Below are positions 9,898 through 14,137 of a stretch of DNA of 64,000 nucleotides, piece by piece. Both the position numbers and the translations under genes were made by a program. Position 1 is the stretch's first letter. Every line of letters starts with the position of its first letter. Location of the stretch: assembly GCA_039190005.1 (NCBI GenBank), contig JBCCYM010000001.1, forward strand, positions 36,024-100,023, given 5' to 3'. The DNA is from Pseudomonadota bacterium (GTDB lineage: Bacteria; Pseudomonadota; Gammaproteobacteria; UBA12402). Under the pieces are notes generated by a model. That model saw only the letters and a list, made by a program, of their open reading frames with translations. It had not been told where the DNA came from and searched no databases.

Positions 9898-11730
9898 ATG
9901 TGTGGCATTATCGCAATTAACAGCTACCGTGATATCACCAATATGCTGATTGATGGTCTCAAACAGTTGGAGTATCGCGGCTATGATTCATCGGGTATGG
10001 CGGTGATCGACGCCCACCAGCAATTAAACTGTTCGCGTCGAGTGGGGAAAATAAGGGCGTTAGAACAATCACTAAAGCAACAGCCCATCAGTGGCACCCT
10101 AGGCATTGCCCATACACGATGGGCGACACATGGCAAACCCTGCGAAAAAAACGCGCACCCACATCTATCGGATAACACTTTCGCGATTGTACACAATGGC
10201 ATTATCGAAAACTATGAGAACCTGAAAAAAGACTTACAACAACAGGGAACCGTTTTTTATTCGGATACGGATAGTGAAGTCATTGTCCATTTGTTTAATC
10301 AGTATTGGCGGCAAACCGGTGATGGATTAGACGCGCTGTTAAAGTTACGTCAAACACTACAACAAGGCGCTTACGCGGTGAGTATTATCAACACGCGTGA
10401 ACCCAATCGCTTGCTGGCCATGCGTGTAGGCAGTCCACTGGTTGTCGGTCTTGGACAAGGTGAGAATGGTGTCGCTTCCGATATTATCGCACTGCTTGAT
10501 TTTGCCGAAGAACTGATTTATTTAGAAGAAGGTGATATTGCTGATATTCGTTCGGACAAGGTCACCATTTATGATAGTAAAGGCAATATTGTCCAGCGTG
10601 AAACACATCCATTGCCACAAAAAAAATCAGTAAATCATCGTGGCCATTTTCGTCACTACATGCTTAAAGAAATTTTTGAACAGCCACAAGTTATTGCTGA
10701 TCTTATCAACAATGCCATCAGTGAAACAGAAATAAGCGCTAATATTTTTGGCGCTGATGCTGAACGCGTATTAACACAGGTTGAACAGATACAAATCGTC
10801 GCTTGTGGTACCAGTTATCACGCTGGACTGGCTGCCCGTTATTGGTTAGAAAGTATTGTCGGCATCCCTTGCCGTGTTGAAGTCGCCAGCGAAATACGTT
10901 ACCGGCGCGTTGCCATCATGCCCAATACCTTATTTTTAACTATTTCTCAATCCGGTGAAACAGCGGACACACTCGCGGCATTGAAACAGGCAAAACAATC
11001 CAAGCAGTATTTATCGTCACTGGCCATCTGTAATGTCGCGCACAGCAGTTTGCGTCGTAACTCGGCCATGTCTTTTTTAACCCAAGCCGGCACTGAAATC
11101 AGTGTCGCGTCCACGAAAGCGTTTACAACACAGCTGGTAAGCCTATTGTTGCTAACCGCGGTATTGGCTAAATTACGTGGTATGGATGCCTATAAACAAT
11201 GCTTATGCCAGCTGAAACAATTGCCTGACTTATTACAAAAAGCGTTAAGCGTCAATGACGATATCGCCAAATTAGCGGAATTTTTTACCCATAAACAACA
11301 TTGTTTGTTTTTAGGACGAGGCACACAATACCCTATCGCCATGGAAGGCGCGCTAAAACTAAAAGAGATTTCTTATATTCATGCTGAAGCGTACGCAGCT
11401 GGTGAACTGAAACACGGTCCATTAGCCTTAATTGATGAAGAAATGCCGGTTATCGCCATCGCTCCGGAAAATGAACTGTTTGATAAACTCAAATCAAATT
11501 TGCAAGAAGTACAGACGAGAGGCGGCAAGCTTATTGTTTTTTCATCGGAGCGAACAAAAAATAACTGGCAAGATCGAATCATTAATTTGAGCTTGCCAGC
11601 TGTTGCTGATATGATTGCGCCTATTATTTACGCGATTCCGATGCAGCTTTTAGCGTATCATGTCGCCGCGATGAAAGGCACCGATATTGATCAGCCGAGA
11701 AATCTAGCCAAATCAGTGACTGTTGAATAA
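9898..11730 (+). CDS. glmS: Glutamine--fructose-6-phosphate aminotransferase
   Basis: Starts MCGIIA (Ntn amidotransferase Cys2). Two SIS domains. Ends ...SVTVE. 610 aa. Confidence 0.9.
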   Translation: MCGIIAINSYRDITNMLIDGLKQLEYRGYDSSGMAVIDAHQQLNCSRRVGKIRALEQSLKQQPISGTLGIAHTRWATHGKPCEKNAHPHLSDNTFAIVHNGIIENYENLKKDLQQQGTVFYSDTDSEVIVHLFNQYWRQTGDGLDALLKLRQTLQQGAYAVSIINTREPNRLLAMRVGSPLVVGLGQGENGVASDIIALLDFAEELIYLEEGDIADIRSDKVTIYDSKGNIVQRETHPLPQKKSVNHRGHFRHYMLKEIFEQPQVIADLINNAISETEISANIFGADAERVLTQVEQIQIVACGTSYHAGLAARYWLESIVGIPCRVEVASEIRYRRVAIMPNTLFLTISQSGETADTLAALKQAKQSKQYLSSLAICNVAHSSLRRNSAMSFLTQAGTEISVASTKAFTTQLVSLLLLTAVLAKLRGMDAYKQCLCQLKQLPDLLQKALSVNDDIAKLAEFFTHKQHCLFLGRGTQYPIAMEGALKLKEISYIHAEAYAAGELKHGPLALIDEEMPVIAIAPENELFDKLKSNLQEVQTRGGKLIVFSSERTKNNWQDRIINLSLPAVADMIAPIIYAIPMQLLAYHVAAMKGTDIDQPRNLAKSVTVE

Positions 11731-11737
11731 ATCGATC

Positions 11738-14137
11738 ATGAAAAAGAAAAAAATGATTAACATTGCTTTGCTTTGTGGCGGGCCCTCACCTGAACGCGGT
11801 ATTTCACTGAATTCAGCGCGGTCGGTATTGGATCATTTGAGCGCGGATGATATTAGCATTGTACCGATTTACTTTGATTATAAAAAACAGGCGTATCAAT
11901 TATCGACCGCGCAACTTTATTCTAACACGCCTTCTGATTTTGATTTTAAACTGCAACATACCGCCAAGGCCTTAAATCAAACACAATTGTTGCGCTTGCT
12001 TAAACAAGTCGATTTAACTTTTCCAGTCATGCACGGTTGTTTTGGTGAAGATGGCGGTATTCAGCATTTTCTGGAAAAAAACGCCATTCCTTTTGTCGGC
12101 TCGAGCGCGCGCACTTGTCGCCAGGTGTTTGATAAATTTACTGCCAATGAAGCCATAGCCAGTCAAGGGTTTTTTACCTTGTCATCGATGGTGTTAACTA
12201 AAAAAGATAATCATCGCTTAAAAAAAATTAAATCTTTTTTTAAGCGGCATCAACTCAAACGGGCGATTGTCAAACCGGCATCGGGTGGTTCCAGTATTGG
12301 TGTTTTTTCAGTGAGTACGGCTGAGGAAGCTTTGGAAAAAGTTGATTTTTTACTCAATCAAAACATCTATAAACGGGTGGTGATCGAACCGTTTGCCAAA
12401 GGGATTGAGTTTACCATTATTATTTTGCATAACCGTTTTCATTTGCCGGTTGCTTTAGTGCCGACTGAAATTGAAGCCGATTACGACAAACATCAGATTT
12501 TTGATTTCCGCAAAAAATACCTGCCCAACCGCAGTGTTATTTATCATTGTCCGCCACGCTTTGATGACAATACTATTGAAAAAATTCGCGTACAGGCGGA
12601 GCAGTTATTCGCGTTGTTTTCAATGCGTGATTTTGCCCGTTTTGACGGCTGGGTATTGCCGGATGGGCGGATCTGGTTTTCTGATTTTAATCCCATCAGT
12701 GGCATGGAACAGAACAGCTTTTTATTCATGCAAGCCGCGCGGGTTGGTATGAGCCACAGTGATGTGTTGCGTCATGTGATCGCCCATGCCTGTAGTCGTT
12801 ATCATATTCCTTTTAACGCTCGAAAAACCACGCTGAGCAAAAAACGTAAGCCGGTCCATATTTTGTTTGGCGGCAGCAACGCCGAGCGTCAAGTATCATT
12901 GATGAGCGGTACCAATGTTTGGTTAAAACTGAGAAATTCACAGCGCTATCAACCGATTCCATTTTTACTTGATGAACACAATCATGTCTGGCAATTGCCT
13001 TACCAATTAGCCTTAAATCATACGGTAGAAGAAATTGCCGCCAGCTGTAAGCGCTATCACCATGATGAAAATTGTCTTTACGCGTTTGAAAAAAGCGCGC
13101 GTCAGCGTTTAGGTCTTTTTTATGACAGCTGTGATAAAGAATTTTCTTCGCCAAAGAAAATGCGTTTAAATCAATTCATTCAACAATCCCCGTTTGTCTT
13201 TATCGCGTTGCATGGCGGCATCGGTGAAAACGGCACACTGCAAGCAAAATTAATGAAAGACAGGGTAAAATTTAACGGTCCCAATGAACAAACCGCGCGC
13301 TTATGTATGAATAAATGGCTTAGCGCTAAAGCGGTTACTGCAGCGACTATTCCGGGGGTTTACGCAATTGCCGGCAAACGTTACGCTGTTAAATCCTTGC
13401 TCGCGCGTGATGAACAGCAGTTACAGGCATTATGGGAAACATTAAAACGACAACTCAATTGCGATAGCTTTATTATCCCGCCGGAGCGCGACGGCTGTTC
13501 CGCTGGCGTCGCGCGCTTGGATCAGTTTTCTGATTTAAAAAAATATTTACATTTCATTCAGCAAAATGTTGAGTTTATTCGAGCCGATGTGTTTAGCTGG
13601 AAAAACACCATTATTGAAATGCCAACAATTCAACCTAAGTATTTGTTAATTGAAAAATTTATTACCACTGATACTTTGGCGATTAAACATAACCACATTC
13701 AACATCATCAATACAGTGGCTGGTTAGAATTAACTGTCGCGGTTGTTGAACAAAGACAGAAAAATAAGAAAACCATACATGTGTTTCACCCCAGTATTAC
13801 GGTCAGCAGTGGTGAAATTTTAACGGTTGAAGAAAAATTCCAAGGCGGCAGTGGCGTTAATATTACGCCACCACCAGCGGATATTATCGCGCCAGCACTA
13901 TTGCGAAAAATCAAACGGCGTATTAAACAGCTTGCTGAGCATATTGGCATCAATGGTTACGTGCGTATTGATATGTTTGTCAACATAAACAATGGCGATA
14001 TTATGATTATTGAAATCAACGCGCTGCCGGCGCTCACGCCATCAACAGTGTTCTACCATCAAGCCTTGGCGGAAAAAAAACCATTGTCACCGACGCAATT
14101 ACTAGAACAAATTATTGGCAATAAACATGGTTATTAG
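11738..14137 (+). CDS. ddl: Tandem-fused double D-alanine--D-alanine ligase-like ATP-grasp protein (Ddl-Ddl)
   Basis: Two complete Ddl-like units. Unit 1 (~aa 10-370) has IALLCGGPSPERGISLNSARSV ... FPVMHGCFGEDGGIQ ... ATP-grasp. Unit 2 (~aa 375-804) has VHILFGGSNAERQVSLMSGTNV ... FIALHGGIGENGTLQ ... EINALPALTPSTVF. Occupies the ddl slot upstream of ftsQ. The track ORF starts at a TTG at 11723; the ATG at 11738 is preferred. Confidence 0.7.
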   Translation: MKKKKMINIALLCGGPSPERGISLNSARSVLDHLSADDISIVPIYFDYKKQAYQLSTAQLYSNTPSDFDFKLQHTAKALNQTQLLRLLKQVDLTFPVMHGCFGEDGGIQHFLEKNAIPFVGSSARTCRQVFDKFTANEAIASQGFFTLSSMVLTKKDNHRLKKIKSFFKRHQLKRAIVKPASGGSSIGVFSVSTAEEALEKVDFLLNQNIYKRVVIEPFAKGIEFTIIILHNRFHLPVALVPTEIEADYDKHQIFDFRKKYLPNRSVIYHCPPRFDDNTIEKIRVQAEQLFALFSMRDFARFDGWVLPDGRIWFSDFNPISGMEQNSFLFMQAARVGMSHSDVLRHVIAHACSRYHIPFNARKTTLSKKRKPVHILFGGSNAERQVSLMSGTNVWLKLRNSQRYQPIPFLLDEHNHVWQLPYQLALNHTVEEIAASCKRYHHDENCLYAFEKSARQRLGLFYDSCDKEFSSPKKMRLNQFIQQSPFVFIALHGGIGENGTLQAKLMKDRVKFNGPNEQTARLCMNKWLSAKAVTAATIPGVYAIAGKRYAVKSLLARDEQQLQALWETLKRQLNCDSFIIPPERDGCSAGVARLDQFSDLKKYLHFIQQNVEFIRADVFSWKNTIIEMPTIQPKYLLIEKFITTDTLAIKHNHIQHHQYSGWLELTVAVVEQRQKNKKTIHVFHPSITVSSGEILTVEEKFQGGSGVNITPPPADIIAPALLRKIKRRIKQLAEHIGINGYVRIDMFVNINNGDIMIIEINALPALTPSTVFYHQALAEKKPLSPTQLLEQIIGNKHGY

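Follow-up and report, generated by a model that had tools for sequence, protein, structure and literature searches.

A gene in the 64-kb window analyzed here (the whole stretch of 64,000 nt from contig JBCCYM010000001.1 of a Pseudomonadota bacterium) codes for a protein with two complete units of Ddl (D-alanine–D-alanine ligase) joined in tandem. We consider it likely that this protein is a plant-type, long-form tandem Ddl, composed of two anciently diverged units, that serves peptidoglycan synthesis in a Legionellales-like bacterium. A sequence-only reading of the window had described an 804-amino-acid tandem of two complete Ddl units, and this description is borne out by the open reading frame (ORF) spanning 11723 to 14137 and by the Pfam domains present in both of its halves. 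The novelty that the same reading implied is lost, because plant DDL is already known to have this architecture, which moreover occurs very widely among bacteria. A local duplication of a resident ddl gene is likewise not supported, given that unit 1 and unit 2 share 20% identity and became fused before plant and bacterial members separated. The fusion is therefore no local oddity of this genome, which removes a false lead. Residue numbers given below run from 1 to 799 and are counted from the ATG at 11738.

The whole protein matches Dala_Dala_lig_N and Dala_Dala_lig_C twice each in Pfam (6e-44 and 1.6e-38), and each unit examined alone matches both domains (1.3e-24 and 2.8e-26 for unit 1, 8.3e-18 and 2.3e-11 for unit 2). 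Canonical Ddl enzymes are 300–370 amino acids long and form homodimers of identical subunits. At 799 amino acids and with two units, the protein encoded in the window falls outside the single-unit length of ~300–370 amino acids, and its units, unlike those of canonical Ddl, are covalently joined and only 20% identical to each other. Identity to Escherichia coli DdlB is 26% for unit 1 and 23% for unit 2. Together with lower hidden Markov model (HMM) scores and two insertions, this agrees with the earlier view that unit 2 is the more divergent. With TIGR01205, the general Ddl model (EC 6.3.2.4), the whole protein scores 300.5 bits, summed over the two units, against a cut-off of 245.65 bits; unit 1 by itself reaches 196.2 bits and unit 2 reaches 109.9 bits.

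Structure prediction gave a similar picture. An AlphaFold2 model of the full 799-residue chain, made from an alignment of 31 sequences, has a mean predicted local distance difference test (pLDDT) score of 85.4 and a predicted template modeling (pTM) score of 0.85, and its secondary structure repeats the Ddl fold twice. The only internal stretches of low confidence are residues 252–266 and 692–704, which are the two omega loops. That the pTM score is this high over all 799 residues suggests a defined mutual arrangement of the units. When compared with the PDB by Foldseek, each unit resembles solved Ddl structures, with template modeling (TM) scores of 0.8–0.88 normalized on the target and 0.34–0.40 on the query, and shares the three-domain fold of the canonical enzymes from E. 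coli (DdlB, 2dln), Coxiella (3tqt), and Thermus (6u1d). All Foldseek matches in the PDB were single-unit Ddl, VanA, and VanG structures, and none spans the tandem.

To compare active sites, the DdlB sequence was checked against PDB entries 2dln and 1iov and aligned to 41 unit-1 and 41 unit-2 sequences; catalytic positions are given in DdlB numbering. Unit 1 retains E15, H63, K97, K144, S150, K215, Y216, R255, D257, N272, and S281, and has Asp instead of Glu at position 270 in all aligned members, which is a conservative replacement. Unit 2 retains E15, H63, K97, K215, R255, D257, E270, and N272, and departs from DdlB by four changes that are invariant in the family, namely S150 to C, Y216 to F, S281 to T, and L282 to V, the first three of which occur in 41 of 41 bacterial sequences. 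Unit 2 therefore lacks two hydroxyls of the E15-S150-Y216 triad, whereas its ATP- and Mg-binding residues and its transition-state residues are all kept. Its omega-loop motif, EEKFQGG.GVN.TPPP, is also invariant across the family. The N-terminal GG-x-S-x-E loop that had been read in both units is found in unit 1 (GGPSPE); the corresponding motif of unit 2 is GGSNAE.

Because all family members share these changes in the active site, an altered specificity of unit 2 is possible, and the missing S150 and Y216 hydroxyls make a different nucleophile conceivable. The S150A and Y216F mutants of DdlB reportedly acquire D-Ala-D-lactate synthesis, and the Leuconostoc D-Ala-D-Lac ligase LmDdl2 presumably carries Phe at the position of Y216.

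Strong purifying selection acts on unit 1 and unit 2 alike. For close pairs, the ratio of nonsynonymous to synonymous substitution (dN/dS, Nei-Gojobori) is 0.03–0.12 in unit 1 and 0.03–0.10 in unit 2, and mean column conservation is 0.78 and 0.68, respectively. The low dN/dS values and the conserved catalytic residues mean that unit 2 is no decaying copy. A half stripped of most catalytic residues had been named as the sign of a simple degenerate duplication, and alignment to DdlB instead keeps most of these residues in both halves.

One position of unit 2 called for separate treatment. The window encodes Pro at the equivalent of DdlB K144 (IIPPERDGC, compared with VKPRADGC in the family), a position occupied by Lys in 120 of 120 other family members. 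The window protein also deviates at five of the unit-2 positions that are at least 97% conserved, compared with a maximum of four and a mean of 0.7 among 120 relatives. However, two contigs from an independent assembly (run SRR22824305), L086 and L087, span window positions 6977–13490 and 13485–15143 and match the window fully apart from three bases (13478, 13479, and 13485), with which the contigs give the codons for K-P-A. Both contigs break at a G+C-rich palindrome, GCCGGCGCGCG, at window positions 13478–13486 (L086 6502–6510; L087 1–2). Within window positions 13460–13500, the version with the unit-2 lysine reads AAGCCGGCG and the version with the ATP-site variant reads CCGCCGGAG. The change from Lys to Pro in the window thus probably stems from an error in assembly or from a minor or strain variant. 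We draw no inference from it because L086 and L087, which represent the same population, have Lys, and for the same reason the change was rejected as a sign that unit 2 is decaying in the lineage of the window.

A survey of related genomes for the fusion, which had been proposed as a check, revealed a very wide distribution of the family among host-associated bacteria and bacteria with small genomes. More than 2,600 matches came from a protein search, and the best 120 of them are all 779–834 amino acids long and cover 96–100% of the query at 54–59% identity. When one genome per species was scanned, relatives were found in at least 554 genomes, and the best 80 of these are all full-length and 50–59% identical. 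The bacterial carriers in this species scan belong to Patescibacteria, TM6/Dependentiae, Parachlamydiales, Coxiellaceae, Francisellaceae, Thiotrichales, and other Gammaproteobacteria, and those from Patescibacteria include Peribacteria/Peregrinibacteria, Gracilibacteria, Parcubacteria groups, and metagenome-assembled genomes (MAGs) labeled “Saccharibacteria.” A profile-free search of 1.84 billion representatives clustered at 50% identity yielded 366 clusters at E<=1e-30, one of which contains a protein (P0442, QXD22482.1) from Opitutia bacterium ISCC 51, whose genome is complete. The tandem gene is also carried by the complete genomes CP066682.1 and OZ246396.1. Many full-length tandem ligases, including the one in this complete genome, are labeled “hypothetical protein” at NCBI, perhaps because each unit sits below the curated Ddl HMM cut-offs. 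No report of a bacterial tandem Ddl was found in the literature we searched, and a 2023 survey of Mur chimeras in PNAS includes MurC-Ddl but not Ddl-Ddl.

The closest known counterpart is DDL of Viridiplantae. The proteins of Arabidopsis (At-DDL), Physcomitrium (PpDDL, BAE45860), and rice (OsDDL, BAF22630) have two Ddl units in the same order as in the window. Residues 79–947 of a 956-amino-acid protein from Coffea eugenioides (XP_027176337.1) align collinearly with residues 5–792 of the window protein at 43–45% identity (E 4.5e-167), and the Coffea protein carries the same set of two plus two Pfam domains. A Populus deltoides protein (KAH8505914.1) falls in the same group, likewise aligns over its two units from end to end at 43–45% identity, and also has an N-terminal extension. 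Such an extension, of ~80–200 amino acids and presumed to be a transit peptide, is present in plant DDL and absent from the bacterial protein. The window gene further differs from plant DDL in its operon-like bacterial setting, where it follows glmU-glmS and precedes traT-ftsQAZ.

The site signatures of the two units, S150/Y216/D270/S281 in unit 1 and C150/F216/E270/T281 in unit 2, are identical in the window protein, in eight bacterial sequences, and in eight of ten long sequences that are of plant or apparently eukaryotic origin; of the two exceptions, one has S at position 150 of unit 2 and one has an incomplete unit-2 C-terminus. Because these unit-specific signatures are common to plants and bacteria, the fusion and the divergence of its sites are older than the separation of plant from bacterial members. 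No donor lineage for plant DDL was singled out, as the plant proteins are 41–44% identical to every bacterial group sampled.

For the plant proteins, our evidence from the literature was taken second-hand from PMC9954125 and PMC7432710. The former describes At-DDL and PpDDL as fusions of two putative DDL enzymes (PMC9954125), and therefore the architecture was already known. The supplement of the same paper depicts this arrangement of two enzymes in the proteins of Arabidopsis, moss, and rice (PMC9954125). A poorly annotated bacterial protein is now tied to the DDL of plant chloroplasts, and the invariant, non-canonical site of its unit 2 poses a concrete biochemical question that is relevant to the retention of DDL by plants.

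Other known ligase systems fit less well. VanA, VanG, VanC, and LmDdl2 (PDB 1ehi) have the same fold as the tandem units, but the combination of C150 and T281 and the two insertions in unit 2 are not features of Van ligases. The whole protein scores 217.7 bits with the NCBIfam model for VanG (cut-off 495), 160.9 bits with that for VanC (650), 110.5 bits with that for VanA (775), and 148 bits with the D_ala_D_lac model (550), and unit 2 alone scores even lower on the Van models. No genes resembling vanH or vanX turned up around the ligase gene in the window or among recurrent neighbor families. In host-associated bacteria, the chlamydial MurC-Ddl protein (NF011171) likewise joins Ddl to another ligase that acts in the peptidoglycan pathway and depends on ATP, although its partner is MurC rather than a second Ddl. 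With this model the tandem protein scores 140.2 bits (cut-off 1015), and it has no Mur ligase Pfam domain.

In the interpretation we favor, the tandem protein would supply D-Ala-D-Ala to MurF for peptidoglycan synthesis and would probably be the sole Ddl of the bacterium. Unit 1, which has the E15-S150-Y216 triad, is predicted to form an acyl-phosphate on the first D-Ala in an ATP-dependent manner, after which the second D-Ala would attack. Unit 2 may pack on unit 1 as a built-in partner that takes the place of the second subunit of the Ddl homodimer. It would hold its own ATP/Mg site and a reshaped pocket for the second substrate (C150, F216, T281, and V282), and it may catalyze a related ligation in which the attacking nucleophile differs. 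Expression of the ligase is probably coupled to that of glmU-glmS, and hence to the supply of UDP-N-acetylglucosamine.

Several observations favor a role in peptidoglycan synthesis. The gene lies 5' of ftsQAZ-lpxC, which is the usual place of ddl, and the 64-kb window has no other Ddl-like ORF. A gene for alanine racemase (alr), confirmed by Pfam, directly adjoins the tandem gene in 13 of 80 related loci, on the same strand in 12, and is the sole functionally telling neighbor among them. In moss, D-Ala dimerization is lost and macrochloroplasts form when ddl is knocked out, according to the published account (PMC9954125).

Other observations weigh against this role. Single units score under all curated NCBIfam Ddl cut-offs, and genomic context beyond alr is not conserved, such that the window alone among 81 loci has the gene beside ftsQAZ. 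The position in the division and cell wall (dcw) cluster that had been noted for the gene is therefore not a trait of the family. The search for another Ddl covered the 64-kb window, and a canonical ddl elsewhere in the genome is possible. Many plants that lack MurF retain DDL, a hint that its function extends beyond peptidoglycan. In addition, the pseudo-dimer arrangement proposed above is one that we infer from a single quantity, the pTM score of the model.

Three other explanations were weighed. That the fusion might be an assembly or frameshift artefact joining two adjacent ddl genes was a concern raised with the original description, and we now give it next to no credence. Nothing speaks for it except the three-base disagreement at 13478–13485, which leaves the reading frame intact, whereas an uninterrupted architecture of ~790 amino acids recurs in plant nuclear genomes, in complete chromosomes, and across at least 554 genomes that each represent one species. 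The independent contig L086 also contains the point where unit 1 joins unit 2 (window ~12800–12860) and is identical to the window there. It is somewhat easier to imagine that unit 2 is a pseudo-enzyme without catalysis, a duplicate that has degenerated and whose only remaining use to unit 1 is structural or regulatory, because its S150 and Y216 hydroxyls are gone and the window sequence has Pro at the K144 equivalent and more deviations at conserved positions than any of 120 relatives. We nevertheless judge this to be very improbable. The eight DdlB residues retained by unit 2 are invariant from bacteria to plants, as is its omega-loop motif across the family, its dN/dS is as low as 0.03–0.10, and the independent contigs of the same population encode the lysine.

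A third explanation, which we hold to be unlikely but less so than the preceding two, is that the protein is not a housekeeping ligase. Its product would instead be a different one, such as D-Ala-D-Lac, D-Ala-D-Ser, some other D-aminoacyl dipeptide, or a tripeptide assembled in two successive ligations, with unit 2 providing the specificity and a normal ddl residing elsewhere in the genome. The invariant changes S150 to C and Y216 to F in unit 2 are compatible with this explanation, as are the scores of each unit below the curated Ddl HMM cut-offs, the reported retention of DDL by plants without MurF, and the existence of a stand-alone ORF of the unit-2 type (L088, described below), which suggests that unit 2 can act alone. 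However, the D-Ala:D-Ala active site of unit 1 is fully canonical, D-Ala dimerization is lost in the moss knockout (PMC9954125), alr adjoins the gene in 13 of 80 loci, and the protein falls far short of the VanA, VanG, and VanC cut-offs with no vanH- or vanX-like genes seen nearby. We are similarly doubtful of a bifunctional enzyme, in which unit 2, whose C150/F216/T281 site is conserved from Patescibacteria and Legionellales-like bacteria to flowering plants, would actively make a product of its own, not D-Ala-D-Ala but for instance a depsipeptide or another D-aminoacyl conjugate. If such an enzyme did exist, the second activity would account for the presence of DDL in all green plants, even those without MurF and the remainder of the peptidoglycan pathway, and the bacterial members would be tractable systems for finding this activity.

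Coordinates of the ligase gene and its neighbors are listed in the table. Pfam analysis of the window ORFs places an HD-domain gene, and then glmU and glmS, ahead of the ligase gene, whose G+C content (0.42) is like that of its surroundings. The stop codon of glmS is TAA at 11728–11730, and the ATG at 11738 begins 7 nt after it. This ATG is likely the start of the ligase, giving 799 amino acids, because family members have N-termini of matching length and the start called in the independent contig L086 is the same. The overlap with the glmS stop that had been proposed thus applies to the TTG start only. Spacing between glmS and the ligase gene is close and co-directional with either start, and co-transcription with glmU-glmS remains probable, as first proposed. 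The reported absence of mur genes was also correct for the 64-kb window, which likewise lacks alr and a second ddl. The sequence-only reading had placed the gene at the ddl position upstream of ftsQ. This is accurate in that the gene lies 5' of ftsQAZ-lpxC, but traT, with its own sigma-70 consensus site, intervenes, and ftsQ is therefore not the immediate neighbor. An Rfam scan of the window gave no match.

Table. Coordinates of the ligase gene, its parts, and neighboring features in the window
Feature	Coordinates	Strand	Remarks
Tandem (plant-type) D-Ala-D-Ala ligase gene	11738..14137	+	799 amino acids plus stop; uninterrupted ORF; Pfam 2x Dala_Dala_lig_N and 2x Dala_Dala_lig_C; start likely
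Alternative TTG start of ligase gene	11723	+	gives 804 amino acids
Unit 1, residues 1–367	11738..12838	+	Ddl-like ATP-grasp unit, canonical active site
Unit 2, residues 368–799	12839..14134	+	diverged Ddl-like ATP-grasp unit, C150/F216/T281/V282 signature, two insertions
Unit 1 omega-loop region, residues 252–266	12491..12535	+	K260-Y261 = DdlB K215-Y216; low-confidence AlphaFold2 segment
Unit 2 omega-loop region, residues 692–704	13811..13849	+	motif EEKFQGG; K700-F701 = DdlB K215-Y216; low pLDDT
Disputed unit-2 codons	13478..13486	+	window CCG CCG GAG (P-P-E); independent assembly AAG CCG GCG (K-P-A)
glmU	8519-9889	+	Pfam NTP_transferase/Hexapep
glmS	9898-11730	+	Pfam GATase/SIS
Promoter-like site TTGACA-16-TATAAT	14237-14264	+	12/12 match to sigma-70 consensus
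traT	14304-15056	+	Pfam TraT 3.5e-74; between ligase gene and ftsQ
ftsQ	15527-16222	+	Pfam; dcw-cluster 3' end
ftsA	16302-17537	+	Pfam; dcw-cluster 3' end
ftsZ	17564-18739	+	Pfam; dcw-cluster 3' end
lpxC	18955-19872	+	Pfam; dcw-cluster 3' end

The host of the window is a deep-branching Legionellales-like gammaproteobacterium, because the nearest matches of three of its proteins point in this direction. The closest relative of the ligase is in a Coxiellaceae MAG (59% identity), SecA, which is 100% identical to a protein from an NCBI MAG labeled “Pseudomonadota bacterium,” has its next best match in a Legionellaceae MAG (69%), and TraT is nearest to proteins of Legionella pneumophila plasmids. 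The traT gene, which codes for a lipoprotein of complement resistance and surface exclusion, is normally carried on plasmids and is here found beside the ligase gene; the best plasmid matches of its product, those of L. pneumophila, are 47–48% identical.

Among loci in other genomes, PBP1A, an RF-1-domain protein, UPF0489, Wzy_C, and Ham1 were considered as conserved operon partners and set aside as Peribacteria synteny. At the other gammaproteobacterial, chlamydial, and TM6 loci, the neighbors are unrelated. Some copies of the ligase do not agree with the taxonomy of their MAGs: one pair (L004/L005, L017/L018 being the loci concerned in both cases) joins Gammaproteobacteria and Saccharibacteria at 82% identity, and another joins Pseudomonadota and TM6 at 80%. 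Such mismatches reflect either horizontal movement among host-associated lineages or unreliable MAG labels or binning.

Single-unit relatives were also encountered. In the MAG “bacterium ELA477” (L051), a 308-amino-acid, single-unit Ddl-like ORF at 305–1231 lies directly upstream of the tandem gene (1314–3728). It is stripped of nearly all catalytic residues (E15S, H63G, K97L, R255Q, E270G, and N272R) and lacks the omega loop, and it could be either a pseudo-enzyme or what remains of a canonical ddl that has been displaced. Half-length matches were considered as unfused genes, but most proved to be contig-end fragments that start at an internal Met. The single clear stand-alone case is a complete unit-2-type ORF (P0356, L088 368–1630) of 420 amino acids, with the motifs DGCSAG and EEKFQGGTGVN. 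It directly follows an unrelated ORF that, by eye, may resemble phosphatidylserine decarboxylase.

Two further regions of the window stand out by composition. An ORF of 1785 amino acids on the minus strand (33447–38804) occupies the part with the lowest G+C content (0.36–0.40), and its sole Pfam match is a weak one to B_lectin (4e-08); it could encode a secreted or effector-like protein of a host-associated lineage. Two adjacent plus-strand ORFs (50566–51960 and 52400–53821), of 464 and 473 amino acids and without Pfam matches, have a G+C content of 0.36–0.37.

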